From Thermoleophilia bacterium (GTDB lineage Bacteria; Actinomycetota; Thermoleophilia; Gaiellales; F1-60-MAGs149), in NCBI GenBank assembly GCA_037133755.1, contig JBAXNN010000008.1, positions 30,245 to 94,244 of the forward strand: a stretch of DNA of 64,000 nt, written 5' to 3'. Every line of letters starts with the position of its first letter. The first letter of the stretch is position 1. The translations under genes were made by a program, and so were the position numbers. This document shows positions 1,453 to 58,890 of the stretch, one piece after another. Under the pieces are notes generated by a model. The model saw only the letters and a program-made list of their open reading frames with translations, did not search any database and was not told the origin of the DNA.

Positions 1453-1456
1453 CGCG

Positions 1457-2391: not shown

Positions 2392-2395
<4 letters not shown>
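1457..2395 (-). CDS. NuoG-like Fe-S subunit of formate dehydrogenase; ends with the molybdopterin-oxidoreductase FS0 4Fe-4S domain (N-terminal fragment of a split FdhA/FdsA)
   Basis: Part of ORF 1457..2620. The likely start is GTG 2395, which has GGAGG 6 nt upstream and overlaps the upstream TGA; ATG 2380 is the alternative. Motifs: 2Fe-2S region TLCFGETLAPKNACRVCVVEVEG..QPSC; ferredoxin motifs CILCYKCVDAC and CVYCGNCIQVCP; then TICTYCGVGCNLELHV..GNLCIKGRFGFQH, followed by a stop. Confidence 0.82.
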
Positions 2396-4250
<1,855 letters not shown>

Positions 4251-4251
<1 letters not shown>

Positions 4252-6209
4252 TAGTCGCCCGCCACCAGTTCGCGGTCGGCGTAGGCGGTCATGGTCTGCT
4301 CGCCCTTGGCGAGCTTCTCGACCTTGATCGCGCAGGCCTTGAACTCGGCGGTGCCACTCTTCTCGTCGACGGCGTCGATCGTCAGCTGGTTCACGTCGAC
4401 CTGGTCGGGGAAGTGGAACGTCATGAAGCCAAGACCAGGACGCAGCCGGACGTCGGTGCGGACCGGCGACTCGACGGTGCCACGGCGCGAGGAGACGCGC
4501 ACGATCTCGCCGTCTTCGAGGTTCATGCGCTCCATGTCCTCGGGGCACAGCTCGAGGAACTCGCCGGCGTGCAGCGGGCTCGTGAACTTCTCGGTCTGGA
4601 CGCCCGTGTTGTACGACTCGAGGCGACGACCCGTGGTGAGACGGATCGGGAACTCGGCGTCGGTCGCCTCGAACGGCGGGCGATCGTGCACCGGCACGAA
4701 CGGCGCGAGCATGCCCTGCACCGGGTCGGCCCAGAGACGCTCGTGCAGACGCGGCGAGCCAGCGTGGCCCTCCTCGGGGCACGGCCATTGGATGCCACCG
4801 AGCTCCTCGAGCCGCGCGTACGACATGCCGGTGTGCATCGGCGAGAGCGAGCGCAGCTCGTTCCAGATGTCCTCGCTGGTCGGGTAGTTCCAATCGAAGC
4901 CCAGGCGCTTGGCCAGCTCGGTGAGGATCCACTGGTCGTCCATGGCCTCGCCCGGCGGGTCGAGCGCCTTGCGCACGCGCTGGACGCGACGCTCGGAGTT
5001 CGTGACGGTGCCGTCGGACTCGCACCACGAGGCAGAGCCCGGCAGGATCACGTCGGCGAGCTCGGCCGTCTTCGTCGCGAAGATGTCCTGCACGACAAGG
5101 AAGTTGAGGCCGCCCAGCAGGGTGCGGATGCGGTTCGAATCGGCGTCGGACTGGGCCGGGTTCTCGCCGATGATGTAGCAGTACTTCAGCTCCCCGGTCT
5201 CCATGCCGTGGAACATCTGCGTGAGGTGCCAGCCGTAGCGATCACGGATCGGCACGCCGTAGGCCTGCGAGAACTTCTCGCGTGCCTCGTGGTTGTTCTC
5301 GATGTCCTGGAAGCCCGGCAGGCGATTCGGGATCGCGCCCATGTCGCCGCCGCCCTGCACGTTGTTCTGGCCGCGCAGCGGGTTGAGGCCCGAGCCGTAG
5401 CGCCCGACGTGGCCGCAGAGCAGGGCCAGGGAGATCAGGCTGAGGACGTTGTCGACGCCCGTGTGGTGCTCGGTGATACCGAGCGTCCACGAGATCATCG
5501 CGCGGTCGGCCTTGGCGTAGGCGTGGGCGACCTCGCGGATCGCCTCGGCCGGTACGCCGGTCAGCTCCTCGGCACGCTCGAGCGTGTACTCGGCGACGTG
5601 CTTTCGATAGTTCTCGAAGTTCTCCGTGGAGTGCTCGATGAAGGCCCTGTTGGCGAGACCCGCTTGGATGATCTCGTTGGCCATGGCGTTGGCGAGGGCG
5701 ATGTCCGAGCCGACGTTATTGCCGAGCCAGATGTCGGCCCACTGGGCGGTCTCAGAACGGCGGGGATCGACGACGAAGAGCCGCGCACCGTTGTGAATGC
5801 CCTTGAGGACGTGATGGAAGAAAATCGGATGTGCGTTGCGGGCGTTCGAGCCCCACAGCAGGATGACGTCGGTGTCGTGATACTCCTCATACGAAGAGGT
5901 TCCGCCACCCGCTCCAAAGACAGTCGCCAGACCGACGACGCTAGGAGCGTGTCAAGTTCTGTTACATGAGTCGACGTTGTTCGACCCCATCACCTGACGG
6001 GTGAACTTGCCGGCGAGGTAGTTGACCTCGTTGGAGGCCTTCGAGCACGAGAACATGCCGTAGCTCTTCGATGTGTCGAGGTCGCGCGCAGGCGCGAGGC
6101 CGGCGGCGGCGTAATCGAGCGCCTCCTCCCAGCTGGCGGGTCGGAACTCGCCGTTCTCCTTGATCCATGGGTGCGTCAGGCGCCCCTTGGGCAGTTTCGT
6201 CGTCGTCAT
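4251..6209 (-). CDS. fdhA: Formate dehydrogenase catalytic (molybdopterin) subunit, selenocysteine-containing; lacks its own FS0 domain
   Basis: ORFs 5952..6527 and 4251..5684 join in frame across TGA 5954..5952: ..NNVDSCNRT-U-HAPSVVGLATVFGAGGGTSSYEEY... ATG 6209 (MTTTKLPKGRLTHPWIKENGEFRPASWEEALDY) has GGAGG 9 nt upstream. Typical MopB and C-terminal barrel blocks are present: NPLRGQNNVQGGGDMG, IGENPAQSDAD, LTTGRRLESYNTG. Confidence 0.88.
5911..5954 (-). ncRNA. Sec UGA codon plus bacterial SECIS-like stem-loop inside the fdhA mRNA
   Basis: The mRNA reads UGA CAC GCU CCU AGC GUCGUC GGUCU GGCGAC UGUCUUU GGAGC. The upper 6-bp stem (5939..5923) closes a GGUCU loop that starts 12 nt after UGA. 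The lower stem pairs GCUCC with GGAGC. Register and loop resemble the E. coli fdhF SECIS core. Confidence 0.7.
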
Positions 6210-6320: not shown

Positions 6321-7202
6321 ATGCAGTTGCGGCAGTTGGAATACGTCATAGCGCTCGCTCGCGAACGGCACTTCGGCCGCGCTGCTGCTGCATGTCATGT
6401 CTCGCAGCCGTCCCTGAGCGGCGGCATTCGGGCCCTCGAGGCGGAATTGGGTGTGCCTATCGTGGTGCGCGGCCGCACCTACGGCGGCCTGACACCCGAG
6501 GGCGAGCGTGTGGTTGCCTGGGCGCACCGCCTGCTGGCCGACGCCGACGGCCTGCGCGAAGACCTCGCCGCCATGCGCGGCGCGCTTACCGGTCGCCTGC
6601 GCCTCGGCGCGATCCCGACCGCGCTGCCGATCGCCAGCGCGCTATCGGCGACCGTCGCCGCGCTCCACCCCGGCCTGTCGATCACCGTGCTCTCGCTCGC
6701 CAGCCGCGAGATCGAACGCCAACTGCTCGAGTTCGAGATCGATGCCGGCATCACGTACCTCGACAACGAGCCGCTGCACGGTGTGCGCGGTGTCCCGGTC
6801 GCGCAGGAGCGCTACGTCCTCTACGCCCACCAGGGCAGTCCCGAGGCGAGCCGGCCATCGCTGACCTGGCGCGAGGCCGCAGAGCTGCCGCTCGTGCTGC
6901 TCACGCAGACGATGCAGAACCGCCGCATCATCGACGCGGCCTTCACGACCGCTGGCTCCTCCCCCGCCCCACGCATCGAGTCGGACGACATCGTGCCGCT
7001 CTGGGAGCACGTGGCCGATGGCCGCTGGTACACGATCGGGCCGAGCTCGTGGCTCGACGGCGGCGCGCTGCCCGACGAGATCGTCGCCGTGCCACTGACC
7101 GACCCAACGGTGGAGCAACGCATCGGCGTCGTCGTCCCCGACCGCGACCCATTGCCGACGATCACGCGCGCGCTGCTCGACGCAGCCCGCGGCGACGACT
7201 AG
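6321..7202 (+). CDS. LysR-family transcriptional regulator
   Basis: ORF 6171..7202 trimmed to ATG 6321: MQLRQLEYVIALARERHFGRAAAACHVSQPSLSGGIRALEAELG (LysR wHTH) followed by a substrate-binding domain. Divergent from the fdh operon. Confidence 0.9.
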   Translation: MQLRQLEYVIALARERHFGRAAAACHVSQPSLSGGIRALEAELGVPIVVRGRTYGGLTPEGERVVAWAHRLLADADGLREDLAAMRGALTGRLRLGAIPTALPIASALSATVAALHPGLSITVLSLASREIERQLLEFEIDAGITYLDNEPLHGVRGVPVAQERYVLYAHQGSPEASRPSLTWREAAELPLVLLTQTMQNRRIIDAAFTTAGSSPAPRIESDDIVPLWEHVADGRWYTIGPSSWLDGGALPDEIVAVPLTDPTVEQRIGVVVPDRDPLPTITRALLDAARGDD

Positions 7203-7224
7203 CTCTCCACGCGCCCACCCTTCG

Positions 7225-9114
7225 TCAGGGCGTGAGTTCGATGCGGCGGCCGATCGCCGTCAAGAGCTCGGGTGGCACGCCGAAGAACTCGGGACGCCCC
7301 TGGGAGAAGCGATGCATGGCGGCGAACAGATACAGCGGGACCGAGCGCAGTCCCCTGCCCTTGACGGCCACGGAGTCGCGCCCGATGAGGTAATCGGCCA
7401 CCTGTGGATCGAATGGCTCGCCCAGCGCGAGTCGCCCCAGTGCCGCAGGCACGTCAGGTTGCTCGGTGAACCCGAAGCGAAGCGCAATGCGCTGCACGCC
7501 GTGCTGCAGCACAACAACCTCGGCGCGCTCCGCCTCCGGAACCACGGGAACCTCGGTTGTGCTGATCGAGACGATCAGCGTGCGCTCGTAGATGCCTCCG
7601 GTGCGATCGGCCAGTTTCATCAGCGTCCCAGGCGCCACCTCCGGCTCACGCACGAGGAAGACACCCGTACCACGCAACCGGCCGCGGGCCGATGGCGGCA
7701 ACGTGGCCAGGAATCCGTCCAGCGGCACGGCGTGAGCCGCCGCCTCGGCCAGCAAGCGATCACGCCCCGTCGACCACGAGCGGACGACGAAGAAGATCAC
7801 CACGGCGATGGAGACGGTGAACCACGCGCCGTGCACGATCTTGATCACGTTCGACGAGAAGAACAGGATGTCGACGACACCGAGCGGTACGTAGACGAGC
7901 GCCACGACCAGCGGCGACCAACGCCAGACCGTGCGAGCCACGATCGCCGCGAGGATCGTCGTGCAGATCAGGGTGCCAGTGACCGTCAGGCCGTACGCCA
8001 CGACGAGACGGGATGAGGACTGGAAGATCAGCACCGTCGCCGCCACGCCGATGAACATGATCAGCGTGATCACGGGGATGTTGATCTGCCCGCGGATCGT
8101 CTTCGAGGTGTGGACGATCGGCAGGCGCGGCAGAAATCCCATCTGCATCGCCTGCTGCGTCAGCGAGTACATGCCCGTGATGACCGCCTGCGACGCGATC
8201 ACCGTCGCCAGCGTGGCGAGCACGACCATCGGCAGCATCAGTCCGTCGGGAACCAGCGCGTAGAAGGGGTTGTTGATCTTACGCGGATCGTCCAGAACCA
8301 ATGCGCCCTGTCCGAGATAACACAGCACCAGTGCTGGGAAGACGATCACCGACCACGAGATCGTGATGGGTGGACGCCCGAAGTGCCCCATGTCGGCGTA
8401 CAACGCCTCGACACCGGTGATCGCGAGGGTGACCGCACCAAGCGCGAGGAACGTCATTGTCGGCTCGCGCAGCGCGAGGTCGATCGCATAGGTGGGACTG
8501 ATCGCCCGCAGCACCGAGGGGTTCTGCACGATCTGCACGATGCCGAGTGCCGAGATCACGGTGAACCAGAGAAGCATGATCGGCCCGAACACGCGCCCGA
8601 TGCTCCCTGTGCCCCAGCGCTGCATCATGAAGAGGAGCGTCAGGATGACCAACGCGATCTCGGTCTCGTACTCCTGCAATCCGCTATTGATGAGCGATGC
8701 TCCCTCGATCGCCGACAGCACCGACACGCTCGGCGTGAGTACCGCGTCGGCGGCGAAGAGCGCGATCGCGAGCATGCTGAGGAAGATGACCAGCGCCCGG
8801 CGTCGCCCCCGGACGAGAGGCTCAACGAGGGCGCCCAGCGCCAAGGTGCCGCCCTCGCCGTTGTTCGATGCCCGCATCACAACGATCACGTACTTGATGG
8901 TGACCACGATGATGAGCGCCCAGACGAACAGTGAGAGCGCACCAAGCACGGATGGCTCGTCGACGGTGAGGCCGATATCGGGGCCGAACGCGGCCTGGAA
9001 GGCGTAGAGCGGGCTGGTGCCGATGTCGCCGTAAATGACACCGAGCGCGGCGAGGACAAGCAGCGCGACCGCGCCGCGTCGCGGCGTGCCCTGGTGACGA
9101 TTCGCATGCGGCAT
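7225..9114 (-). CDS. kup: KUP/HAK/KT-family potassium uptake transporter
   Basis: 629 aa and polytopic. N-terminal signature GVIYGDIGTSPLYAF; GEGGTLAL; a C-terminal cytosolic domain. Confidence 0.9.
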   Translation of the reverse strand: MPHANRHQGTPRRGAVALLVLAALGVIYGDIGTSPLYAFQAAFGPDIGLTVDEPSVLGALSLFVWALIIVVTIKYVIVVMRASNNGEGGTLALGALVEPLVRGRRRALVIFLSMLAIALFAADAVLTPSVSVLSAIEGASLINSGLQEYETEIALVILTLLFMMQRWGTGSIGRVFGPIMLLWFTVISALGIVQIVQNPSVLRAISPTYAIDLALREPTMTFLALGAVTLAITGVEALYADMGHFGRPPITISWSVIVFPALVLCYLGQGALVLDDPRKINNPFYALVPDGLMLPMVVLATLATVIASQAVITGMYSLTQQAMQMGFLPRLPIVHTSKTIRGQINIPVITLIMFIGVAATVLIFQSSSRLVVAYGLTVTGTLICTTILAAIVARTVWRWSPLVVALVYVPLGVVDILFFSSNVIKIVHGAWFTVSIAVVIFFVVRSWSTGRDRLLAEAAAHAVPLDGFLATLPPSARGRLRGTGVFLVREPEVAPGTLMKLADRTGGIYERTLIVSISTTEVPVVPEAERAEVVVLQHGVQRIALRFGFTEQPDVPAALGRLALGEPFDPQVADYLIGRDSVAVKGRGLRSVPLYLFAAMHRFSQGRPEFFGVPPELLTAIGRRIELTP

Positions 9115-9160
9115 CGCAGCCGTATCCTAGAACAAAGATTTCGTATTCAGCGGCACATCG

Positions 9161-11071
9161 TCAGATCTCGACGCGCGCGCCCATCGTGACCGTGTGATCC
9201 GGGGGCACGTGGAAGAAGTCCGTCGAGACCTGTGCGTGGCGATGGAGCAGCGCGAAGACGCGGCGCGGGAAGCCGATGAAGCCGCGGGACGTGACAGCAA
9301 CGGTGTCGCGGCCAACGAAGTACGACGTCGTCTCCGGGTCGATGTGGGGTCCGATCGCGCTCGCCTCGAGCGCGACGGGGACGTTCGGCGACTCGGCAAA
9401 GCCGAAGCGCAGGAACACGCGCCACAGGCCCGGGCTGATCTCCGTCGCCTCAGAGCGATTGGCATCGGTCGCGTACGGCGTGTCAAGCGTCTGCACGGTC
9501 AGCAGCACAGTCAGCTCGTGGATGCGGCCGAAGTTGCGGATCGTGGCGATCAGCGGGCGTGGCACATGGGTGGACGAGGCGACGAGGAACACGCCGGTGC
9601 CCTCCGTGCGCTTGTACTTGCCGGCCGCGACCTTCTCGGTGAAGTCATCGGCCGGCACGGCCTCGCGCGAGAGCGCGCGCATCATCGCCGTGCGTCCCGT
9701 CGACCACGACGAGATGATGATGAACAGGATTGTCGCGACGACCAGCGAGAACCACGCGCCGTGCGGGATCTTCGACATGTTGGCAGTGAAGAACGCGACG
9801 TCGACGATGCCGAGCGGTCCGAAGATCAGCACGATGCGCCACTTCGGCCAGTGCCAGAGGTGGAAGGCGACGATCACGGCGAGGACCGTGGTGCACACCA
9901 ACGTACCGGTGACGGCGAGACCATAGGCCGCCGCGAGGTGCTCGGAAGACTTGAAGATCAGGATCGTCGCAACCACCGCGAGGTACTGGAACAGCGTGAT
10001 GACGGGCATGAAGATCTGGCCGCGCACCGTCGCCGACGTCTGCAGCACCTTCATGCGCGGCAGCAGGCCGAGCTGCATCGCCTGGCGCGTCACGGAATAG
10101 GCGCCCGAGATGACGGCTTGGGACGCGATCACCGTGGCGAGCGTGGCGAGGATCACGACCGGAATCTCGATCCCACCCGGCACGAGGTGGTAGAAGGGAT
10201 TGTCGATCAGCTGCGGATTCTCGAGCAGCAGCGCGCCCTGACCGAGGTAGCAGAGCGTGAGACTCGGGAAGACGATCAGCAGCCACGACAGCGTGATCGG
10301 CGGGCGGCCGAAATGCCCCATGTCCGCGTACAGCGCCTCGGCACCGGTGATCGCGAGCGTGACCGCACTGAGCGCGCCGAACGACAGCAGCGGATGGGCG
10401 ACGATGAACTCGAAGGCGTAGATCGGCAGGATCGCGCGCACCACGGTCGGGTTCTCGCGGATGCCGTTGATGCCAATACCCGCGATGACGAGAAACCAGA
10501 CGAGCATGATCGGGCCGAACAGGCGGCCGACCTTCTCCGTGCCGAAGCGCTGGCCGAGGAAGAGCGTCGTCAGAATCACGAGCGCGATCACGATCGCATA
10601 CCGCTCGATCTCGGGAAACTTGAGGCCTGCGCCTTCGACAGCTGACAGCACCGAGATGCTCGGTGTCAGCACCGCGTCGCTCATGAAGAGCGAGACCGCG
10701 AGGATGCCGACGATGATCACCATCGTGCGCGTCTTGTTCTGCACGAAGCGCAGCGCGAGCGACTGAAGCGCCAGATCGCCGCCCTCCCCCTTGTTGTTGG
10801 CGCGCGTCACGATGATCACGTACTTGATCGTCACGACGATGATCAGTGCCCAGATGAACATCGAGAGGAGGCCGAGGATGTCCTGCTCGTTCGGCTTCAT
10901 GCCGAACGTCGAGCTGAAGGCCACCTGCATCGCGTAGAGCGGGCTCGTGCCGATGTCGCCGTAGATCACCCCGAGCGCGCCGAGCGCGAGGAGTGGCAGT
11001 GGCCCGTGCGGGACATGGCTGCCTCCGGAGGTGGCGTGGTTCGAATCGGACAATGCAGTGCGGCGTCGCAT
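9161..11071 (-). CDS. kup: KUP/HAK/KT-family potassium uptake transporter (tandem paralogue)
   Basis: ORF 9161..11110. The start is uncertain (ATG 11071 MRRRTALSD.. or 11110). Motifs GVIYGDIGTSPLYAM and GEGGDLAL. Colinear with the downstream kup. Confidence 0.88.
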   Translation of the reverse strand: MRRRTALSDSNHATSGGSHVPHGPLPLLALGALGVIYGDIGTSPLYAMQVAFSSTFGMKPNEQDILGLLSMFIWALIIVVTIKYVIIVTRANNKGEGGDLALQSLALRFVQNKTRTMVIIVGILAVSLFMSDAVLTPSISVLSAVEGAGLKFPEIERYAIVIALVILTTLFLGQRFGTEKVGRLFGPIMLVWFLVIAGIGINGIRENPTVVRAILPIYAFEFIVAHPLLSFGALSAVTLAITGAEALYADMGHFGRPPITLSWLLIVFPSLTLCYLGQGALLLENPQLIDNPFYHLVPGGIEIPVVILATLATVIASQAVISGAYSVTRQAMQLGLLPRMKVLQTSATVRGQIFMPVITLFQYLAVVATILIFKSSEHLAAAYGLAVTGTLVCTTVLAVIVAFHLWHWPKWRIVLIFGPLGIVDVAFFTANMSKIPHGAWFSLVVATILFIIISSWSTGRTAMMRALSREAVPADDFTEKVAAGKYKRTEGTGVFLVASSTHVPRPLIATIRNFGRIHELTVLLTVQTLDTPYATDANRSEATEISPGLWRVFLRFGFAESPNVPVALEASAIGPHIDPETTSYFVGRDTVAVTSRGFIGFPRRVFALLHRHAQVSTDFFHVPPDHTVTMGARVEI

Positions 11072-11153
11072 ACGGCCGGCGCCGGCTGAGTATACCGCCG
11101 CTGCGAACAAACCCCTGCCATAGTTCAGCGATGGCGTTGAAAGGATTCACCCA

Positions 11154-12605
11154 GTGTTCGTGAACAAGACCCCGCGTTTCGAGCCCCTCTCCGAGGACGC
11201 ACTCGACACCATCGACCGAGGCTGGAAGCGCCTCGTCTCCGAGGTCGGGATCAAGTTCGTGCACGAGCCGTCGCTCGAGCTCTTTCGCCGCGAGGGCCAG
11301 CGCGTCGAGGACGAGGTGGTCTTCTTCGACCCCGAGTGGATTCTTGAGAAGATCAAGACGACGCCGACCGAGTTCCGCCTGATCTCGCGCAACCCGGACA
11401 AGAACGTGCAGTTCGGCCGCGACAACATGGTCTTCTGCACCGGCCAGTCGATGCCGTTCTGCGACGACGGCGTCACGGGCCGCCGCGACGGCACGCTCGC
11501 CGATGCCGTCCAGCTGCTGCGCGCCGCACAGATGACGCCCGAGATCGACACGCCCGGCTATCCGATCATCGAGGTCAACGACAAGCCGATCGATTCGCGC
11601 CATCTCGACCTGCAGCTCGCGATGTACGAGAACACCGACCTCCCCGTCGGCGCTGCGCAGATCCACCTCAACGGCGTGATCGACTCGATCGCGATGGCCG
11701 AGATGGTGCTCGGCGGCCCCGAGGTGCTCGAGAAGGACGCCGCGGTCTTCGGCACGATCAACGCGAACTCGCCGCTGATGTTCGATACGCGCATGCTCGA
11801 GTCGCTGTGGATGCTCGCCGAGCGCAATCAGATCGTCAACATCACGCCGTTCATCATGATGGGCGCGATGGGTCCGGTCGCCGTGCCGGCCGCACTCGCA
11901 CAGCAGACCGCCGAGTCGCTGGCGGGCATTGCGCTCGTCCAGGCGATCCGCCCGGGCTGCCCCGCGATCATGGGCTCGTTCGTCTCGAACACCGACATGA
12001 AGTCCGGCTCGCCCGGCTTCGGCGGCCCCGAGGCAGCACTTGGCATCCTCGCCACCGGCCAGATCGCGCGTCGCCACAACGTCCTGTGGCGCGCCGGCGG
12101 TGGTGGCCTCAACGCCAGCCCGGCCGTGGATGGACAGTCGGCCTTCGAGTCGCTCAACACGATGGCCCAGTCGTTTCTCGCCGGCGCCAACCTCCAGCTG
12201 CACACCACCGGCTGGCTCGAGGGCGGCCTCGTGCACTCGTTCGCCAAGGTCGCGATGGACACCGAGATGCTGCGCAACCTGATCGCGGAGTTCACGCCGA
12301 TCGAATGGACCGACGAGAACCTCGCCTTCGAGGCGCATGCCGAGGTTGGCCACGCCGGCCACTTCTTCGGTGCCGCGCACACGCTGGAGAACTTCCGCGA
12401 CTGCTTCTATCGCCCGACGGTCTGGACGACAGACAACTACTCGGCGTGGACGAAGAAGGGCGGCAAGAACGCCACCGAGCGCGCACTCGACGAGTTCAAT
12501 CGTTTGCAGGAGGCATGGGCAGAGAACCCGCCCACGCTCGACCCCGATCTTCACGCCGAGCTGAAGGCGTACACGGATCGGCGTCGCACCGAGCTCGGCG
12601 ACTAA
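11154..12605 (+). CDS. MttB-superfamily (COG5598) methyltransferase, non-pyrrolysine type (quaternary/tertiary amine methyltransferase candidate)
   Basis: 483 aa from a GTG start with no in-frame TAG. The length and blocks (NANSPLMFD, ITPFIMMGAMGPVAVPAALAQ, GSPGFGGPEAA, GANLQLHTTGWLEGGL, GHFFGAAHTLENF) fit my recollection of trimethylamine methyltransferase-family proteins. Confidence 0.75.
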   Translation: MFVNKTPRFEPLSEDALDTIDRGWKRLVSEVGIKFVHEPSLELFRREGQRVEDEVVFFDPEWILEKIKTTPTEFRLISRNPDKNVQFGRDNMVFCTGQSMPFCDDGVTGRRDGTLADAVQLLRAAQMTPEIDTPGYPIIEVNDKPIDSRHLDLQLAMYENTDLPVGAAQIHLNGVIDSIAMAEMVLGGPEVLEKDAAVFGTINANSPLMFDTRMLESLWMLAERNQIVNITPFIMMGAMGPVAVPAALAQQTAESLAGIALVQAIRPGCPAIMGSFVSNTDMKSGSPGFGGPEAALGILATGQIARRHNVLWRAGGGGLNASPAVDGQSAFESLNTMAQSFLAGANLQLHTTGWLEGGLVHSFAKVAMDTEMLRNLIAEFTPIEWTDENLAFEAHAEVGHAGHFFGAAHTLENFRDCFYRPTVWTTDNYSAWTKKGGKNATERALDEFNRLQEAWAENPPTLDPDLHAELKAYTDRRRTELGD

Positions 12606-12611
12606 CGCCTC

Positions 12612-13436
12612 ATGGTCGTCCTGTTCGGCTTGGTCACGGCCTTCTCGTGGGCGTTCGCCAACGTGTTCACGCAACAGGCGAGCCGGACCAAGACCAAGCC
12701 GGCGGTGATCATGTTCTGGGTCTTGATCGTGACGGCAGCAGTGGTGCTGCCCGTCGCACTGGTCGTCGATCGCCTCGAGGGCCCGTGGACCCCAGCCGGG
12801 TTGGGCTGGCCCATTCTCGCCGGCCTGCTCGCCACCGTCGGCTTCTTCCTGCTGCTGCGCGCGCTGACGAAGGGCAGCCTGAGCGTCGTCGCGCCGATCA
12901 TCGCCCTCGAGGGCGGTGTCGCGACGCTGCTGTCGATCGCGCTTGGTGAGCGCCCATCGGCCGTCCAGTACGTGTTGCTTGGCGTGGCGGTCGTCGGCGC
13001 CTTCCTCGTGGCGGTCGAGCCGGGCCGCCGCACGGCGGCTGGGGCTCCCGAAGCGGTACTCGCAGCGTTCGCCTACGCCGGCGTGCTGATCGCGCTCGGC
13101 CAGTCGAACCTGCCCGACCTGACCACCGTCGGCGTCACGCGAACCGTCAGCGTGCTCGCGATCCTGCCGGCGTTCCTCCTGGTACGCGAGCTGCCGAAGC
13201 GCACGAACGTCTACCCGATTCTCTGGTGCGGCCTGCTCGACGCGGTCGGCTTCGCCTTCTTCGCCTTTGCCGCGTCGATCGGTCCGCTCTCGGTCGCCTC
13301 GGTGACGGCCACGCAGTGGGGCACGGCCGCGGCGCTGATCGGCATCATCGGCATGCGCGAGCGGCTGTACACGAACCAGTACATCGGCATCGCGGTCACG
13401 CTCTTCGCAGTGACCGGGCTCGGGCTCTTGTCCTAG
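12612..13436 (+). CDS. EamA/DMT-family transporter
   Basis: 274 aa with about 10 hydrophobic helices in two EamA-like halves. Starts 6 nt after the mttB-like stop. Confidence 0.75.
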   Translation: MVVLFGLVTAFSWAFANVFTQQASRTKTKPAVIMFWVLIVTAAVVLPVALVVDRLEGPWTPAGLGWPILAGLLATVGFFLLLRALTKGSLSVVAPIIALEGGVATLLSIALGERPSAVQYVLLGVAVVGAFLVAVEPGRRTAAGAPEAVLAAFAYAGVLIALGQSNLPDLTTVGVTRTVSVLAILPAFLLVRELPKRTNVYPILWCGLLDAVGFAFFAFAASIGPLSVASVTATQWGTAAALIGIIGMRERLYTNQYIGIAVTLFAVTGLGLLS

Positions 13437-14185
13437 ACGCGACGCTGGAGCGCGGCGACCGAGGCGGTCGATAGCGGCTCGCGCGTGATGCCCGTCGTTC
13501 CGCCACGCGTGGCGAAGGCGGTGATGCGGCCGGCGCGCTCGCCGTGATGCGCGAGCAGGCGGTGACGGCGGATGTCGTGCACGAGGAAGTCGACGGTCGC
13601 GGCGAGGCCATCGACCACGGTGACGTCACCGGCCAGCTCGCGTACCTCATCGGCGTCGACGTACGCGCTCGGCGTGAGCAATAGGAGCACCGCTACCTCG
13701 GGCGCGTGCTTGCGGACGCGCATGAGCAGATCGCGGGCGGGATCGGTACCGCGCTCGATCAGCGTGACGCTACCGCCGCCGCGCAGCGTGCGGATCGCCT
13801 TGGCCAGCACCATCGTCTTGACCTCGTCGGACGAGAACACCGCGGCGATCGGGCGCCCCTTCGCCTCGGCCAGGGCCGCGCGCAGGCCGCACTCCAGTCC
13901 CCGTACGGAGATGCCCTCGAACTCGGGTCGCGCCTCGAAGGATGCGAAGCCGCCGGCGAGCAGCAGCGCCTTGGCGCCCTCATCGAGGAGCCCCGTCGCG
14001 AGATCGTGCACGCGCCGCGTCACCTGATCGGGCCGCCGGCCCGCGTACGGCGCGAACGCCTGGTCGGCGACGACGAGGATGTCCTCCTTCGGCAGTTGGG
14101 CGCGCAGGAGCTCGGCTCCGCGCACGCCCTCCCAGCCCTCGGCGACGACCCCGATCGAACCTGCCGGGTCGGCGCTCCAGGTCAC
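13433..14185 (-). CDS. Glutamate-racemase-like (Asp/Glu racemase fold) protein lacking both catalytic cysteines
   Basis: ORF 13433..14311 trimmed to GTG 14185, which overlaps the upstream TGA. SIGVVAEGWEGVRGAELLRAQLPKEDILVVADQAFAPYAGRRPDQV..AKALLLAGGFASFEA aligns by eye with MurI IGVxDSGVGGL..LP.E.IIYxGDTARxPYG..[12 protein letters not shown]. The CNTA motif is replaced by GGFA and GCTHYP by LTPSAY. Confidence 0.5.
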   Translation of the reverse strand: MTWSADPAGSIGVVAEGWEGVRGAELLRAQLPKEDILVVADQAFAPYAGRRPDQVTRRVHDLATGLLDEGAKALLLAGGFASFEARPEFEGISVRGLECGLRAALAEAKGRPIAAVFSSDEVKTMVLAKAIRTLRGGGSVTLIERGTDPARDLLMRVRKHAPEVAVLLLLTPSAYVDADEVRELAGDVTVVDGLAATVDFLVHDIRRHRLLAHHGERAGRITAFATRGGTTGITREPLSTASVAALQRRV

Positions 14186-15348
14186 GACCGCGGTCGCTTC
14201 TTCTCCGAGTCGTAGATTGGGAATGCAGCGGCCGTCGCCTCGGCGAGAGTCCCGTCGGGAAGCGCAACCTGTACACGCGTACCGGATGCGACGAGGTCTG
14301 CCTCGATGCACGCCATGCCGATCTGCAAATCGACGCTCGGCGAACGACCCGCCGACGGCGACAGCAACGTTCCGACATTCCGACCATCGACAAAGACCTC
14401 TGCCCCGTAATCCGGTGCCTCATCTCCGTCGACGACCAGCGTCGTGAGGCGGTGCGTGATGCCCGCGGCCAGCTCATCGACCAGCGCCTGCTTGCCAACG
14501 AAGTCACCCGTATCGAGACTGATGGTCCGATCCAGATTCATGTGGAACGGCGAAGTCTCGCCCACGAAATAGTCGTAGCCGATAAAGATCAGGCCCGACT
14601 CGATCCGCAGCGACTCAACCGCAGCCAGACCGTACGGACGGATTCCGTACGCTGCACCAGCCGCGAGCAGAGCCTCCCACAACATCTCGGCGCTGTCCTT
14701 CGGCACGTAGATCTCGTAGCCGAGCTCGCCCGAGTACCCCGTGCGAGCCAAGTAGCAGCCGGCAATACCCGCGACCGTGATCGGCTCCGTCGTGAAGCGG
14801 AAGTACTTGAGCGACGCGACCTCGAAGTCCGTGAGGCCATCGATCAGGTCACGCGACTTGGGACCCTGTACCTGGACGTGCGGCCACTCCTCGGTGCGAT
14901 CGAGGATTTCGACGTCGAAACCCTGCTGCGTCGAGACACGGCGAAAGTGATCGACGTCACTCGGCAGCGCGGTCACCACGAGGATGCCGGCACCCGTCTC
15001 ATCACCGGTGTTGAAGACCACACCGTCGCCGAGCATGCAGCCGTTCTCGTCGAGAAAGCACGAGTACCGGGCCTGTCCGACGGCAAGGTCAGACATGTCG
15101 TTGGCGAAGCAGAAGTCGACGGCCTTGATCGCGTCGTTGCCGCGGAAGATCCACTTCTGCAACGGCGACTCGTCCCAAACACCAACGGTCTCGCGAACCG
15201 CATGGTGCTCGGCAAGTGGATTGCCGAAGTCGGAGATCCAATCCCAGCCCTCCCACTCGGCAAAGGTGCCACCCTGACGACGCTGAATCGCGTCAAAGGC
15301 CGTCAACCGCAGGCCTTCAGCGCCGGCTGCGTTTTCCTGATCGCTCAT
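14182..15348 (-). CDS. GcvT-like aminomethyltransferase-family (folate-binding) protein
   Basis: Part of ORF 14182..16050. ATG 15348 overlaps the upstream TGA (ATGA). MSDQENAAGAEGLRLTAFDAIQRRQGGTFAEWEGWDW..ARTGYSGELGYEIYVP..YGLAAVESLRIESGL is typical of the GcvT/DmdA fold. Confidence 0.85.
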   Translation of the reverse strand: MSDQENAAGAEGLRLTAFDAIQRRQGGTFAEWEGWDWISDFGNPLAEHHAVRETVGVWDESPLQKWIFRGNDAIKAVDFCFANDMSDLAVGQARYSCFLDENGCMLGDGVVFNTGDETGAGILVVTALPSDVDHFRRVSTQQGFDVEILDRTEEWPHVQVQGPKSRDLIDGLTDFEVASLKYFRFTTEPITVAGIAGCYLARTGYSGELGYEIYVPKDSAEMLWEALLAAGAAYGIRPYGLAAVESLRIESGLIFIGYDYFVGETSPFHMNLDRTISLDTGDFVGKQALVDELAAGITHRLTTLVVDGDEAPDYGAEVFVDGRNVGTLLSPSAGRSPSVDLQIGMACIEADLVASGTRVQVALPDGTLAEATAAAFPIYDSEKKRPRS

Positions 15349-17342
15349 GACCGCGGTCTCCTCTTCTCGGGGTCGTAGATCGGGTACGTGTCGGTGTACG
15401 CCGGGACGAGACGGCCGTCGGGCAGCGCCACCTCGACGCGATTGCCCGGCTCGGCCAGCTCGGCCTCGATGCACGCCATGCCGATCAGGCGATCGACGCT
15501 CGGCGAGCGTCCCGCCGACGGCGACAGCAGCTTGCCGACACCGCGACCGTTGACGAAGACATCGGCGCCGTAGTCCGGCGCCTCGTTGCCCGCGACGACG
15601 AGCGTCGTGAGGCGATGCGTGATGCCCGCGGCCAGCTCGTCGACGAGCGCCTGCTTGCCGTTGAAGTCGCCCGTCTCCAGGTTGATCGTCCGGTCCAGGT
15701 TCATATGGAACGGCGAGGTCAGGCCCTGGAAGTAGTCGTAGCCGATGAAGATCAGGCCCGACTCGATGCGGAGCGACTCGACGGCGGCGAGGCCGTACTG
15801 ACGGATGCCGCGCGACGCGCCCTCGTTGAGGAGCTCCTGCCAGAGCGCTTCGGCGCCGGCCTTCGGCACGTAGATCTCGTAGCCGAGCTCGCCCGAGTAG
15901 CCAGTGCGGGCCAGGTAGCAGCCCGCGATGCCGCCGATCGTGATCGGCTCCGTCGTGAAGCGGAAGTACTTGAGCGAGTCGACGTCGAAGTCGGTCATCG
16001 CGCTGATCAGCTCGCGCGACTTCGGACCCTGCACCTGGATGTGCGGCCACTCCTCGGTGCGGTCGAGGATCTCGACGTCAAAGCCCTGCTGCTTCGAGAC
16101 GCGGCGGAACTGGTCCACGTCGCTCGGCAGTGCGGTCACCACGAGGATGCCGGCACCGGTCTCGTCGCCCGTGTTGAAGGCGACGCCGTCGCCGAGCATG
16201 CGACCGTACTCGTCGACGAAGCACGAGTAGCGGGCCTGGCCGACCTGCATCGAGGCCATGTCGTTGGCGAAGCAGTAGTCGACGGCCTTGAGCGCGTCGG
16301 GTCCGCGGAAGATCCACTTCTGCAGCGGTGACTCGTCCCAGATGCCGACGGTCTCGCGGACCGCGTGGTGCTCGTCGATCGGATCGCCGAAGTCAGAGAT
16401 CCAGTCCCAGCCCTCCCACTCGGCGAAGGTGCCGCCGTTGCGGCGCAGAATCGCGTCGAAGGCTGTCTTGCGCAGACCCTCGGTCGAGACCTGCGGGGCG
16501 GGCGCCTCGACGATCGCGATGCCGGCGGCCTCAGCGGGAGGTGAACCCTCCTGATCGGCGGCAGCGACCGGGGTGTCGACGGGGATGATCACGATCGGCG
16601 CCTGGCGCAGGTCCGGCGGCTGATGGCCCGGCGGCAGCACCTCGGACACGCCCAACAGAGCGCGCGCGGCGGCCGGATTCGGCAGCGTGCGGTACTCCTC
16701 GAGGCAGCGCATAGGCTCCTGGTCGAGGTTGCGGCGGATGCGGCGATAGCGGGCCTGCGCACCGGCACCGAGGCCCGGCGTCGAGAAGATCGCCTGCTCG
16801 ACGTACGACTCAATCACCTTGTTGCCGAGCAGCTTGACGTCGGCCTCGCGGGCCTTGCCCGTGAGCGGGTTGTACAGCACGACGCACTTGATGGTGTCGA
16901 GGAACGAGTTCCACGTCGACAGCACGACGGGACCACGGACGCGAATGCCTGTCTCGGGGATCGCGAGGTGCGTGATGCGGCGGTCATTGATCGTGTGGAT
17001 CAGCGACTCAGCGGTCGGCGACATGATGCTGACGAACTTGTGCATCGGCCACACGTCGAGCTGGTTCCAGTCGCCGGGCTCGCAATCGACGCCGATCATG
17101 TACGTGTCGGCGTAGCGGAAGAAGTTCGCATTGCCCCGCGTCTCGCGCAAGTGGTCGTAGAACAGCGTGTTCGTGCCGCCGATCAGGTTCGAGCAGCCAA
17201 CGGCGTCCATCGGCGTGCCCATCACCACGCAGAAGCGGTCGCCGTTCTTGTAGCCACCGGGCCAGAGGGTGTTCAGCGGAGCGGAAACGCCGTCGCGCTC
17301 GACGGAGAAGTCCTCGGAATTGAGTGCGTAGGACGAATGCAT
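15345..17342 (-). CDS. Fusion protein: unrecognised ~255-aa N-terminal domain, Pro/Ala linker, GcvT-like aminomethyltransferase domain
   Basis: 665 aa. Residues ~288-665 are colinear and highly similar to the downstream stand-alone GcvT-like protein. Residues 1-255 (MHSSYALNSEDFSVERDGVSAPLNTLWPGGYKNGDRFCVVMGTPMDAVGCSNLIGGTNTLFYDHLRETRGNANFFRYADTYMIGVDCEPGDW..) have no nucleotide-binding motif I recognise. Confidence 0.8.
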   Translation of the reverse strand: MHSSYALNSEDFSVERDGVSAPLNTLWPGGYKNGDRFCVVMGTPMDAVGCSNLIGGTNTLFYDHLRETRGNANFFRYADTYMIGVDCEPGDWNQLDVWPMHKFVSIMSPTAESLIHTINDRRITHLAIPETGIRVRGPVVLSTWNSFLDTIKCVVLYNPLTGKAREADVKLLGNKVIESYVEQAIFSTPGLGAGAQARYRRIRRNLDQEPMRCLEEYRTLPNPAAARALLGVSEVLPPGHQPPDLRQAPIVIIPVDTPVAAADQEGSPPAEAAGIAIVEAPAPQVSTEGLRKTAFDAILRRNGGTFAEWEGWDWISDFGDPIDEHHAVRETVGIWDESPLQKWIFRGPDALKAVDYCFANDMASMQVGQARYSCFVDEYGRMLGDGVAFNTGDETGAGILVVTALPSDVDQFRRVSKQQGFDVEILDRTEEWPHIQVQGPKSRELISAMTDFDVDSLKYFRFTTEPITIGGIAGCYLARTGYSGELGYEIYVPKAGAEALWQELLNEGASRGIRQYGLAAVESLRIESGLIFIGYDYFQGLTSPFHMNLDRTINLETGDFNGKQALVDELAAGITHRLTTLVVAGNEAPDYGADVFVNGRGVGKLLSPSAGRSPSVDRLIGMACIEAELAEPGNRVEVALPDGRLVPAYTDTYPIYDPEKRRPRS

Positions 17343-17384: not shown

Positions 17385-18035
17385 CTAGTTCATACGCGCG
17401 CCGAGACGACGGTGCTCGAACTCCATCACCTTCATGTCGCGATCGCCGAGCGGCAACTCGAGCCGCAGCTGCGCGGCCTTGAGCGACCGCCCCACGTCGC
17501 CACGACGCTCATACGACGCAACGAGGTTCGACAGGATGCGCAGCGCCGTCAGGTGCACCGGCGTCTGCACGATGCGGCCCGGGGGCGGCGGATCGGCGAG
17601 CAGTACACCGCCCTTGAACGGGTCGAGCAGAATCGGATCGCCATCGCCGAACCAGCCCACGACGTAGTGCCCGGGCAGGCCGACGCCGCGGATCGGGATG
17701 CCGACGCGGCGTCCCACCTCGATCCAGACGACGCTGAGCAGGATGGGCAGGCCGCGCTTGCGTTCGAGCACCAGATCCAGCATCGAATTGTCGGGATGGT
17801 CGTAGTCCTCGACGTCGCCGAGGAAGCCCTCGCGGCGTCCCAGCACCGTGCGGAGCGCCTCGATCTGCTCGAGGCCGGTCTCCCCCACGCCGTTCAGCAC
17901 GACCTCGCCGGCCAGCCGGTCGAGCTCGGCCAGCGCCAGTTCCTGATCCACCTCGCGCAGCGCACCCGCGATCGCCAGCGCGAGCAGGTCGAGCGTGGGC
18001 GCGTCGGTGCGCGCGAGTTGTGCAAATCGGTTCAT
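17385..18035 (-). CDS. Transglutaminase-like/TPR (SirB1, UPF0162-type) protein
   Basis: ORF 17385..18086 trimmed to ATG 18035 (MNRFAQLARTD..). The block YDHPDNSMLDLVLERKRGLPILLSVVWIEVGRRVGIPIRGVGLPGHYVV matches my recollection of this family. Confidence 0.55.
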   Translation of the reverse strand: MNRFAQLARTDAPTLDLLALAIAGALREVDQELALAELDRLAGEVVLNGVGETGLEQIEALRTVLGRREGFLGDVEDYDHPDNSMLDLVLERKRGLPILLSVVWIEVGRRVGIPIRGVGLPGHYVVGWFGDGDPILLDPFKGGVLLADPPPPGRIVQTPVHLTALRILSNLVASYERRGDVGRSLKAAQLRLELPLGDRDMKVMEFEHRRLGARMN

Positions 18036-18125
18036 CTCTCGTATCTTCGCGCGTCTACCCGGCGCGAGACTGGCGCAACCCCACATCAGGGGATCCAGAC
18101 CAGCTCGGCGATCAGCGTCGATTTG

Positions 18126-18392: not shown

Positions 18393-19541
18393 TCAGAGGC
18401 CGATGCGCGCGCCCATCGGCGTCTCGACGAGCGCGAAGGGCGTGTCGGGTGCCATGCGGTCGATGCCGAAAATGTCGGCCTCGGGCCAGGCGGGCTTGCC
18501 TTCGGCGATATCGCCGATCAGCTCGCCCATGATCGGCATGAACTTAAAGGCGTGGCCGCTACAACCGGTCGCAACGGTGATGGCGCCGCGTCGCTCGATG
18601 AAGTACTCACCATCGGGCGTCATCGTCCACGGACACGATTCGGTCAGGTGCGGCCCGTCCGAGGCGAGGCCCGGTGCGTGGCTGATGACCCAGTCGCGAT
18701 TGCACTCCTCTTCGAAGCCGCGATGGGGCCACGCCGCAGCGTCAGGATCCCACGTGTCCTCGCAGCCGTAATCGAGGCCGATCTTGTAGCCCTTGCCCGG
18801 GGTCGGCAGGCCGTAAACGCCGATCTTGTCGGGCGCGTAGAAGTCGACGAGCGAAGGGCGGCGCTGCCACGCGCCGCCACCACGCCAGTACGAGACCTGG
18901 CCGATGGCGGGAGCAAGCGGCAGGCGGATGCCCAGCGGCTCGAGCAGCGTCGTAGCCCACGGACCAACCGCCAGCACGGCGATGTCCGCGTCGATCACAC
19001 GTCGATTCGTCGTCACGCGCACACCGGCTGGGGTCTCATCGACCTCGAGCATGCGCTCCGGGGTCGACAGCTCGGCGCCGGCGCTGCGCGCGGCATCGGC
19101 CATCGCGGCGAGGCCCTTGGCGGCGAACAGCACGCCATCGTCGGGCACAAACGCAGCAGCCTCCTGCGGCCGGTACGACAGTTCTGGAAAGGCGCGCTGC
19201 ACGCCATCGGCATCGAGTTCCTCGACGGGCACGCCAGCGTCGCGCATGGCGGCAACCCACGCGGGGACCGGATCGCCCCGCAACACCAGGCCCACGTGGT
19301 CGAGCAGCTGCTCACCCGACAGCGCCTCGAGCTCGCGCCATTTATCGAGCGCCTTGCGAGCCAACACGATGTCTCCGGGGCGCTCGTGCGCCAGGCGGAA
19401 GATGCGGGTAGCACCCGCCGACGAGCCCGCGGGGGCCGAGATGCCGTGGCGATCGATACCGATCACCTCGTGGCCGCGCTCGGCGAGCGCACGCGCCGTC
19501 GGCAGCCCCATCACGCCCAGCCCGACCACGACGGCCTTCAT
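18393..19541 (-). CDS. FAD-dependent oxidoreductase, monomeric sarcosine oxidase / N-methyl amino acid oxidase-like (DAO family)
   Basis: ORF 18393..19769 trimmed to ATG 19541. MKAVVVGLGVMGLPTARALAERGHEVIGIDR contains the GxGxxG motif. TGCSGHAFKFMPIMGELI resembles the MSOX/MTOX covalent-flavin cysteine region. Confidence 0.75.
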   Translation of the reverse strand: MKAVVVGLGVMGLPTARALAERGHEVIGIDRHGISAPAGSSAGATRIFRLAHERPGDIVLARKALDKWRELEALSGEQLLDHVGLVLRGDPVPAWVAAMRDAGVPVEELDADGVQRAFPELSYRPQEAAAFVPDDGVLFAAKGLAAMADAARSAGAELSTPERMLEVDETPAGVRVTTNRRVIDADIAVLAVGPWATTLLEPLGIRLPLAPAIGQVSYWRGGGAWQRRPSLVDFYAPDKIGVYGLPTPGKGYKIGLDYGCEDTWDPDAAAWPHRGFEEECNRDWVISHAPGLASDGPHLTESCPWTMTPDGEYFIERRGAITVATGCSGHAFKFMPIMGELIGDIAEGKPAWPEADIFGIDRMAPDTPFALVETPMGARIGL

Positions 19542-19545
19542 CGAT

Positions 19546-20781
19546 TCAGACCTTCGCCGCGACAGTGGCGGCGATGACGAGATCAGCGGCGCGGCGGCCA
19601 GAGCGCAGCGCGCCGTCGATCGAGGCGTTCTCGGTGCCGTCGCCCGAGAGGATGACCTTGTCGCGCAGCCAGCGCACGCCACTCGACAGCGACCCCGGCG
19701 GCTGCGCGTGCTGCGCCCACTCGATGCGATCCACGCGCAGGAGGCGCCACGTGTGCACGCGGCTGCCAAACCAGGGAGTTAGCTGCGCACGCGCCGCGGC
19801 GTCAAGCGCCGCATCGTCCCCGGCGGGCAGACCCACGCACGAGGCGGCAATCAGCGCCTGACCGGCCGGCGCGTACGACGGCGCGACGGCGCTCATCACG
19901 GCGACGTTGTTGACCGGTCCGGTGCCATCACCATCGAGCACGATGCGCTTGCCCGCGGGGGCTTCGACGGCGGCGTACCAGAGGCACGTCGAGCCGCGCG
20001 GCTCGGGCGCCGGAATGCCGGCAAGCGCGCAGGCATCGACGGTGCCAGCGGCGATCACCACAGCGTGCTTGGCCTTCAGCGTCTTGCCGGAGGCGAGCGT
20101 GACGCTGGCCTTGCCGACCTTGGTGACGCGCTCGTGTAGGTGAATGCTGCCCCCTGGCAGGCGTGCGGCAAGCTGGTCGGCGATCGCGCCCATGCCGCGT
20201 GCTGGCACGACCGTGCGGCCGGAGGCCATCTGGCTGAAGACCTGGTCGATCAGATGGCTCGAGACGTTGAGCTCGGGATCGAGGAACACGCCGCGGTAGA
20301 GCGGGCGCAGCAGACGCTCGCGGACCGACTCGGAGAAGCCGAGATCGCGCAGGCGCTGGTCTGCTGTGGTCTCCGGTGCCGTTGCGGTGGCGAGTGGCTT
20401 GGCCTGCAGCAGCCACGTGGCTGCCGCCTTGATGTCTGCTGGGCCGCCGATACCGGCCTTGACGGCCTGCGGCACAGAACGCGGATCGCGCAGCGGATGG
20501 CCGATCGTCCGCATGCGGCCGTCCCACCAGATGTCGGCGCCAGGCTGGAAGGCCTTCAGGTCGAGGGCGTCGAGATCGAGCGCGCGCTTGGCCTCGGGGT
20601 ACCCGTCAAACAGCACCTGGAAGCCGCGGTCGAGCAGAAAGCCGTCGACGTGGTCGGTACGGACGCGGCCACCGACGCCATCGGACGCCTCCACGACTTC
20701 GACGTCGATGCCGTGCTCGCGCAGCAGCGCCGCGCAGTTGAGCCCGGCGAGTCCTGCTCCGATGACGACGACGTCGGCCAT
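19546..20781 (-). CDS. NAD(P)/FAD-dependent oxidoreductase, flavin amine oxidase family
   Basis: MADVVVIGAGLAGLNCAALLREHGIDVEVVEASDGVGGRVRT is the classic amine-oxidase dinucleotide fold. There is a 4-nt gap to the downstream oxidase. Confidence 0.8.
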   Translation of the reverse strand: MADVVVIGAGLAGLNCAALLREHGIDVEVVEASDGVGGRVRTDHVDGFLLDRGFQVLFDGYPEAKRALDLDALDLKAFQPGADIWWDGRMRTIGHPLRDPRSVPQAVKAGIGGPADIKAAATWLLQAKPLATATAPETTADQRLRDLGFSESVRERLLRPLYRGVFLDPELNVSSHLIDQVFSQMASGRTVVPARGMGAIADQLAARLPGGSIHLHERVTKVGKASVTLASGKTLKAKHAVVIAAGTVDACALAGIPAPEPRGSTCLWYAAVEAPAGKRIVLDGDGTGPVNNVAVMSAVAPSYAPAGQALIAASCVGLPAGDDAALDAAARAQLTPWFGSRVHTWRLLRVDRIEWAQHAQPPGSLSSGVRWLRDKVILSGDGTENASIDGALRSGRRAADLVIAATVAAKV

Positions 20782-29020: not shown

Positions 29021-29091
29021 GGGCCGGTAGCTCGAAGGTCGAGCAGGAGACTTTTAATCTCTCGGTCAGGGTTCGATTCCCTGTCGGCCCA
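29021..29091 (+). tRNA. tRNA-Lys (anticodon UUU)
   Basis: Hand-folded cloverleaf. Acceptor stem GGGCCGG/TCGGCCC (one G-U); U8; D stem GCTC/GAGC with a GG loop; anticodon stem GGAGA/TCTCT; loop CT-TTT-AA; T arm CAGGG-TTCGATT-CCCTG; discriminator A. No encoded CCA. Confidence 0.9.
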
Positions 29092-54247: not shown

Positions 54248-54257
54248 CGTCAGCTCC

Positions 54258-57592: not shown

Positions 57593-57599
57593 TCGCAGC

Positions 57600-58838: not shown

Positions 58839-58890
58839 GCCCAGCAGGGTACTGGCGTTTTACGCCCAGCCGAAATGCGGCTGACGATGA

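Follow-up and report, generated by a model that had tools for sequence, protein, structure and literature searches.

The window considered here, that is, the whole 64-kb stretch of Thermoleophilia DNA that was analysed, carries a gene (mttB) for a non-pyrrolysine methyltransferase of the MttB superfamily and holds no gene for a corrinoid partner. The encoded enzyme is very probably a satellite corrinoid-dependent methyltransferase whose substrate is an acid-bearing methylated amine other than glycine betaine, and whose corrinoid protein, tetrahydrofolate (THF) methyltransferase and activase are encoded elsewhere. In aerobic bacteria of soil, fresh water and the sea, the MttB family supplies some of the most abundant methyltransferase genes that still lack an assignment, most of them far from any corrinoid gene. 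The gene layout in the window is ordinary and reveals no new methyl-transfer chemistry. The gene and the transporter gene behind it are as follows:

11154 to 12605, plus strand: non-pyrrolysine MttB-superfamily methyltransferase, 483 aa (PF06253).
12612 to 13436, plus strand: EamA/DMT-family transporter, 274 aa (PF00892, E 2e-23).

The membership of the window MttB in the family is shown by PF06253, which matches it over profile positions 25-500 of 500 with E 3.2e-150 and 501 bits (cut-off 25), and by the structures of Desulfitobacterium hafniense MtgB (DSY3156; 2QNE/9YCE), which match residues 4-483 with E 1e-90. Likewise, 4YYC matches with E 1.5e-84. The reading frame from 11154 to 12605 contains no in-frame TAG and ends with TAA, and the pyrrolysine-type model TIGR02369 scores 221 bits, under its cut-off of 525. 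The ATG of eamA at 12612 lies 6 nt past the mttB stop. The initial annotation had described a non-pyrrolysine MttB followed 6 nt downstream by an EamA gene, and PF06253, PF00892 and the coordinates bear this out. The ratio of nonsynonymous to synonymous substitution rates (dN/dS) for mttB is 0.05-0.19, which indicates purifying selection; a pseudogene or relic is ruled out by this ratio together with the intact open reading frame. In all loci of the close clade defined below, eamA adjoins mttB. The two are probably co-transcribed, and the transporter may serve for uptake of the substrate or release of the product.

The host organism is an uncultured freshwater member of the Thermoleophilia (Actinomycetota). 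The window has about 68% G+C, and real genes were picked by their third-position G+C. The nearest database proteins come from metagenome-assembled genomes (MAGs) labelled Thermoleophilia, Gaiellales or plain Actinomycetota/actinobacterium, and the closest MttB relatives (86-98% identity) bear names pointing to lakes (Lac Pavin, La Plata, Lake Superior, ELA). Beyond these lake relatives, the next MttB homologues belong to soil Solirubrobacterales, Gaiellaceae and Thermoleophilaceae and are only 49-57% identical. For the survey of homologues, 80 loci were fetched, one genome per species, and the predicted proteins were clustered; the close clade consists of eight loci of at most 17 kb each. One of these relatives (L012, positions 6900-9793) has two tandem EamA genes after mttB, and a two-gene insert with a toxin-antitoxin or nucleotidyltransferase-type look stands there between EamA and the gene of a MurI-like protein.

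The substrate pocket of the window MttB is altered. In D. hafniense MtgB, the residues Y97 and F356 form an aromatic pair for cation-pi binding of the trimethylammonium group, R312 and H348 bind the carboxylate, and the exchanges Y97A and F356L raise the Km several hundred-fold (PMC13080624). Across paralogues R312, and less so H348, is kept, and it is the aromatic pair that changes from substrate to substrate (PMC13080624). These four positions were mapped onto all homologues. The window MttB aligns with MtgB over its full length, is non-pyrrolysine like it and keeps R312 and H348, the predicted carboxylate-binding residues; it differs from MtgB in that Tyr97 is replaced by Gln and F356 by Gly, with a Trp four residues earlier, and the aromatic pair is thus missing. 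At the MtgB positions Y97, R312, H348, I352 and F356 its signature is Q-R-H-W-G. The close clade shares this signature, with R312 and H348 kept throughout. The pocket pattern is that reported for family members that do not act on betaine (PMC13080624). The substrate is probably not glycine betaine, because Tyr97 is Gln and F356 is Gly and because the protein branches outside the clade of Tyr-type homologues.

The genes expected of a corrinoid partner system are found beside the MttB genes of a sister clade. The clustered proteins of the fetched loci show that, in the clade of 49-56% identity, the MttB gene is repeatedly accompanied by an operon in divergent orientation. For example, Pfam and NCBIfam assign the operon of L016 to an IclR regulator, a corrinoid protein, a methylenetetrahydrofolate reductase (MTHFR) with DUF5981, a Pterin_bind protein, RACo and a DUF1638 protein. 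The corrinoid protein has 221 aa with PF02607 and PF02310 (B12-binding_2 and B12-binding) and MtgC as its best NCBIfam match, and the Pterin_bind protein exceeds the cut-off of the methyl-THF:corrinoid methyltransferase model (326 bits vs 259). Among 83 loci, MtgC was detected in 44 and RACo in 50. The compact aerobic cluster of mtgB, IclR, mtgC, metF, pterin-binding methyltransferase, RACo and DUF1638 was observed in L016 (3925-11440) and in about 50 other loci (L017-L087), with soil Thermoleophilia, Gaiellaceae and Solirubrobacterales as hosts. It is the aerobic MtgBCD glycine betaine system described in Ruegeria pomeroyi (PMC12478193). Genes for a DAO-GcvT protein resembling dimethylglycine dehydrogenase (DMGDH), for a GMC oxidoreductase and for an aldehyde dehydrogenase frequently lie near the core-linked mtgB. 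The DMGDH-like gene was detected in eight core-linked loci, L016 being one of them, and for this reason GcvT-type neighbours of MttB genes are to be regarded as normal.

The identity of residue 97 and the linkage to the core genes go together. In the core-linked proteins the signature is Y-R-H, followed by Trp at 352 and Gly at 356. Of the 62 Tyr97-type homologues, 53 have two or more core genes within 10 kb, and the other nine are, but for one, short or truncated loci; core genes are entirely absent from the 18 loci with another residue (14 Gln-type, four of other types; Fisher p = 1.3e-11). A neighbour-joining tree places the Tyr-type, core-linked proteins in one monophyletic group, outside which the orphan lineages branch, the clade of the window among them. 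These results give a rule for the Thermoleophilia, by which an MttB gene that keeps Tyr97 lies inside a corrinoid/folate core cluster and one with another residue is a dispersed satellite. By this rule, probable glycine betaine enzymes can be told apart from paralogues whose substrate is unassigned. The window MttB keeps 100 of the 137 columns (73%) in which D. hafniense MtgB is identical to no fewer than 95% of the Thermoleophilia homologues linked to the core.

Dispersed MttB genes served by a distant core are documented in other bacteria. The two MtgB enzymes of R. pomeroyi (SPO2108 and SPO2134) are served by a remote MtgC (SPO2160) and MtgD (SPO1863), and up to seven pfam06253 paralogues occur per genome (PMC12478193). 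The window mttB resembles this MtgBCD system in standing away from the genes of the corrinoid protein. Similarly, the MttB paralogues of Eubacterium limosum act on different quaternary amines with one common corrinoid protein (PMC12478193). Its enzymes MtpB, MtcB, MtyB and MthB correspond to the favoured reading of the window MttB in that many paralogues go with a single corrinoid protein and THF methyltransferase (PMC13080624, PMC8604678, PMC12478193), and they too keep R312 with a variable aromatic pair (PMC13080624); they differ from the window MttB in belonging to strict anaerobes and in having known substrates. The corrinoid dependence of D. hafniense MtgB has been proven biochemically (PMC13080624). 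The absence of a corrinoid gene next door is a normal state in the superfamily, because dispersed MttB paralogues are served by one remote core (PMC12478193), and the missing neighbour is therefore not evidence of unusual methyl transfer. The initial annotation had proposed an unusual methyl-transfer step, with either a remote corrinoid protein or corrinoid-independent transfer. The proposal of an unusual step finds no support in view of the core-linked sister clade and the documented dispersed paralogues (PMC12478193). The remote partner is strongly favoured by the core genes of the sister clade, by the orphans, which are never core-linked, and by the R. pomeroyi precedent (PMC12478193).

The absence of the partner genes from the window itself had first been deduced from the motif DxHxxG..SxL..GG. 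This motif matches neither the window nor 1.5 Mb of related loci, and it is too strict, as the true MtgC proteins of Thermoleophilia read SAF and not SxL. Lineage-specific hidden Markov models (HMMs) were used because the motif misses these true MtgC proteins. The HMMs were built from Thermoleophilia MtgC, pterin-binding methyltransferase, RACo, DUF1638 and MTHFR. The earlier statement holds by better means: Pfam scans of all plausible window genes gave no B12-binding domain, and the five HMMs, run against all six translated frames of the window, had no match at E<=10. The clustering seen in MtgBCD-type systems, with MtgC, MtgD/MtgA and a reductive activase beside the methyltransferase, is not present around the window mttB; such systems do not depend on it (PMC12478193).

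Some of these results count against a corrinoid-dependent enzyme with a distant partner and have to be set against the evidence above. None of the five corrinoid-core HMMs has a match anywhere in the 64-kb window, nor in the eight close-clade loci (at most 17 kb each), and an Rfam scan of the window gave no cobalamin riboswitch. As the data cover 64 kb of this genome, the existence of the partner in the window lineage is inferred and not shown. The tight and kept adjacency of mttB to genes of THF-binding proteins, described below, would also fit a direct functional link. A protein-database search with a Gaiellaceae RACo listed at least 120 matches, all of which were Gaiellaceae orthologues of 82-100% identity, and none of those listed was tied to an orphan-MttB contig.

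A route for the methyl group may be proposed on the basis of the characterised systems. The window MttB would bind an acid-bearing methylammonium compound other than glycine betaine, and would present one N-methyl to the Co(I) of an MtgC-type corrinoid protein, which would be encoded elsewhere in the genome and be common to other MttB paralogues. A pterin-binding methyltransferase would then pass the methyl to THF for oxidation through MetF, and RACo and DUF1638 proteins would re-reduce the inactivated cofactor. The probably co-transcribed EamA protein would move the substrate or the product across the membrane. At most, the GcvT operon beside mttB would serve the later oxidative removal of the remaining methyls, the one-carbon (C1) unit being captured as methylene-THF. 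In betaine catabolism, dimethylglycine dehydrogenase acts after MtgB. Such a route points to a B12 dependence of methylated-amine use in freshwater Thermoleophilia.

The mttB-eamA pair converges on a cluster of the minus strand, with the stop codons of EamA and the MurI-like gene overlapping. The members of the cluster, in their order of transcription, are as follows:

19546 to 20781, minus strand: flavin amine oxidase, first gene of the cluster (PF01593, E 2.5e-40).
18393 to 19769, minus strand: FAD-dependent oxidase related to N-methyl-L-tryptophan oxidase / monomeric sarcosine oxidase (MTOX-like DAO; PF01266, E 1e-40).
17385 to 18086, minus strand: transglutaminase-like protein (Transglut_core2; PF13369, E 6e-33), directly upstream of X-GcvT.
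15345 to 17342, minus strand: X-GcvT fusion protein, 665 aa (GCV_T, E 8e-60 at residues 298-551).
16638 to 17342, minus strand: domain X, residues 1-235 of the 665-aa protein, unannotated, with a Pro/Ala-rich linker next and then the GcvT domain at 288-665.
14182 to 15348, minus strand: GcvT-only protein, 388 aa (PF01571 and PF08669).
13433 to 14185, minus strand: MurI-like protein, 250 aa (NCBIfam glutamate racemase, E 2e-9).

In the initial annotation this cluster was a convergent three-gene operon of two GcvT-like proteins and a MurI-like protein. The convergence and the genes are correct, and the size is not, since the cluster has six genes including the transglutaminase and two oxidases. 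By coordinates, the starts of the GcvT-only and MurI-like genes overlap the preceding stops, which suggests translational coupling. The order MttB-EamA / MurI-like-(GcvT)-X-GcvT-transglutaminase-oxidase is kept in every close relative (L001, L002, L008, L009, L011, L012 and L013), the adjacency of Transglut_core2 and X-GcvT included, and the flavin amine oxidase is kept in L008, L009 and L012.

The relation of this cluster to mttB is a question apart from that of the corrinoid partner. The chances are about even that the MttB-EamA pair and the GcvT operon are unrelated in function and are neighbours by recent common ancestry, which is compatible with the favoured reading and concerns the pathway link only. 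The two units are on separate transcripts because they are convergent, and relatives have inserts between them, such as the toxin-antitoxin-like pair and the extra EamA gene of L012. Co-occurrence of the gene set in relatives, which had been put forward as a check, is found within the close clade, where the MttB identity is 80-98%, and ends beyond it, which by the initial annotation's own standard of neighbourhood conservation counts against the GcvT link there: X-GcvT stands alone without MttB in L005 and L006, and the other orphan MttB genes have unrelated neighbours and no adjoining GcvT gene. A functional connection is favoured by the survival of the pairing at synonymous divergence (dS) of 0.7-1.3, and by the bona fide betaine loci of Thermoleophilia, in which MttB and GcvT-domain demethylase genes adjoin. 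A link between the GcvT operon and MttB as sequential demethylation, with the GcvT proteins acting in a later oxidative step, is possible and can be held tentatively. The GcvT-like genes probably represent separate oxidative demethylation steps and not a replacement for the corrinoid step.

A corrinoid-dependent MttB might also do without a dedicated MtgC and use the cobalamin domain of MetH or another B12 protein, in a lineage without the soil-type MtgC/MtgD/RACo cluster. No core genes were found on any available freshwater close-clade contig, and the marine MtgC/MtgD core doubles as a split methionine synthase, by which the module is interchangeable with methionine synthesis (PMC12478193). 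Dedicated MtgC, MtgD and RACo are nevertheless present in the core-linked sister clade of the surveyed Thermoleophilia loci, and the inheritance of that core is the simpler assumption. To our knowledge, the use of an intact MetH by MttB enzymes has not been documented, which also counts against this partner, and it is considered improbable.

The least probable explanation is a B12-free relay, in which MttB would give the methyl directly to THF on the neighbouring GcvT-like proteins or domain X. The lack of corrinoid machinery in the window and the close-clade loci would suit it, as would the convergent layout of MttB-EamA and MurI-like-GcvT-X-GcvT, which is kept in all close relatives with all its genes under purifying selection. 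The GcvT-fold domains (GcvT, DMGDH, Tdm, DmdA), however, take C1 units at the formaldehyde level (aminomethyl/iminium) to give methylene-THF, and do not take a methyl cation. The GcvT-type proteins are for this reason poor replacements for Co(I) as the methyl acceptor. Every characterised MttB member uses a Co(I) nucleophile (PMC13080624, PMC8604678), and in the literature that was searched no paper pairs MttB with corrinoid-independent transfer. Moreover, the occurrence of X-GcvT without MttB, the orphan MttB genes without a GcvT neighbour, and the 73% of positions which the window MttB has in common with the proven and core-linked enzymes all speak against the relay. Corrinoid-independent transfer, the second option of the initial annotation, is thus disfavoured and very unlikely. 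It is just as hard to credit that the lineage is wholly devoid of the corrinoid protein, the pterin-binding methyltransferase and a cobalamin supply, with the Gln-type MttB, X-GcvT, GcvT and the MurI-like protein forming a B12-free system for the transfer of methyls from amines to folate.

Both GcvT-type proteins of the cluster contain the GcvT family domains PF01571 (E 1e-60) and PF08669 (E 1e-10), and the GcvT-only protein is 82% identical to residues 288-665 of X-GcvT. They stay under the curated cut-offs of the known subfamilies: 227-235 bits vs 300 for GcvT, 228-238 bits vs 1100 for Tdm, and 117-137 bits vs 410 for DmdA. The window, L001 and L012 have the GcvT-only gene, and L002, L008 and L009 lack it. 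L008 is without it though its MttB is 98% identical, and the copy of L012 has diverged (dS about 1.1). The GcvT-only duplicate is old, because the L012 copy has diverged to this extent, and it has been repeatedly lost or exchanged.

The X-GcvT fusion is rare, with 81 matches among 5.8 billion proteins, and the few of known source come from Thermoleophilia-type MAGs. Tdm (NCBIfam NF053776) and DMGDH or dimethylglycine oxidase (DMGO) have a comparable architecture, in which a catalytic domain occupies the N-terminal part and a THF-binding domain of the GcvT type the C-terminal part. Tdm is the best NCBIfam match of X-GcvT, its profile positions 382-762 matching the GcvT half with E 3e-67. The protein differs from Tdm in its score (228 bits vs the cut-off of 1100), and from both Tdm and DMGDH/DMGO in its N-terminal domain, for which there is no match either to the corresponding part of the Tdm model or to the DAO flavin domain; a Tdm-type N-terminal catalytic domain is thus absent. 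Domain X itself has no match in Pfam, NCBIfam or the PDB sequences, the search of a profile against PDB sequences included. A profile search for it gave 413 cluster representatives, most of which stand alone, are 220-280 aa long and share a conserved Met-His at the N-terminus, and the neighbourhood of one stand-alone homologue (L007) is uninformative. The AlphaFold (AF2) model of domain X has a pLDDT of 96, and its best matches among solved structures are, weakly, the LmbE/PIG-L-like deacetylases (E 6e-3, TM 0.38-0.46). In the region that corresponds to the HPDD metal motif of LmbE-type proteins, the alignment, read by eye, shows no His. The possibility that domain X is a hidden corrinoid-binding domain was rejected, given that it has no B12-binding Pfam match and that its fold matches, weakly, LmbE-like proteins and not the B12-binding Rossmann domain with its cap. 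The domain X family is a new, putatively catalytic domain and the most novel item at the locus. By analogy with the fusions above, X-GcvT may be a new type of THF-linked demethylase. The fusion of domain X to a THF-binding domain is a separate and modest lead to such a type.

The MurI-like protein resembles glutamate racemase (MurI) in its N-terminal half, which aligns to several solved structures with a best E of 6e-8. It differs from MurI, which has two catalytic Cys residues and a full-length family match, in that the match covers half of the protein at 37 bits (cut-off 328) and both Cys are lacking. In the alignment to the glutamate racemases of the PDB, ACNTAS is aligned to AGGFAS, so that the first catalytic Cys is Gly. 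The region of the second Cys motif (GCTHYP), which lies outside the HMMER alignment and was read by eye from the ortholog alignment, is LLLLTPSAY and has no Cys. The orthologues share a near-invariant C-terminal tail, ATRGGTTG..REPLSTAS.AALQRR. Rather than acting as a racemase, the protein may bind a ligand or serve as a scaffolding subunit. A single-sequence AlphaFold model had a pLDDT of 42 and was discarded. Of the oxidases upstream in the cluster, the MTOX-like DAO matches the N-methyl-L-tryptophan oxidase model of NCBIfam with E 1e-59 and 202 bits (cut-off 257), and its true start is probably near 19550.

The initial annotation had also joined scattered genes of the window into a route from methylated amines through folate to formate. 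All the parts it named (an NAD-linked formate dehydrogenase, a DAO flavoenzyme, of which there are two, a GlxBCD-like trio and 5-formyl-THF cyclo-ligase) are present. The route itself is loose, as the parts are spread over 64 kb with DNA-repair, transport and unrelated genes between them. Steps of the FolD, PurU or FTHFS type were not found in the window, and the scattered C1 genes form no defined pathway with mttB. These genes, and the transporters beside mttB, are as follows:

592 to 6209, minus strand: formate dehydrogenase genes (catalytic, NuoE/NuoF-like, Fer2/4Fe-4S, FdhD).
7225 to 11110, minus strand: tandem pair of Kup K+ transporters at 7225-9114 and 9161-11110 (PF02705 and PF22776), divergent from mttB.
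52889 to 56005: GlxBCD/MgsABC-like trio (GATase class II, GXGXG, Glu_synthase).
62391 to 62948: 5-formyl-THF cyclo-ligase.

The gene for the catalytic subunit of formate dehydrogenase (about 4251-6209) has an in-frame TGA at 5949-5951 on the minus strand, in the motif SCNRT-[TGA]-HAPSVVGL. This is the active-site selenocysteine/cysteine position of formate dehydrogenases, and the subunit is probably a selenoprotein. The layout of the enzyme is unusual in being split, in this order, into a molybdopterin catalytic part, a NuoE/NuoF-like fusion (2392-4101), a Fer2/4Fe-4S/Mo-Fe4S4 protein of about 300 aa (1457 to about 2390) and FdhD. In FdsA-type enzymes, the Fer2/4Fe-4S/Mo-Fe4S4 part forms the N-terminus of the catalytic subunit. 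In the region 52889-61486, the GlxBCD/MgsABC-like trio adjoins genes for two FAD oxidoreductases, a BioY protein and an amidase, and the whole may be a separate module for methylamine or amide utilisation. The tandem Kup pair is partly kept in relatives (L001, L008, L012 and L013), and one Kup gene of L002 is a remnant beside a transposase fragment. The sole Rfam or ARAGORN match in the window is a tRNA-Lys (anticodon TTT) at 29021-29091 on the plus strand.

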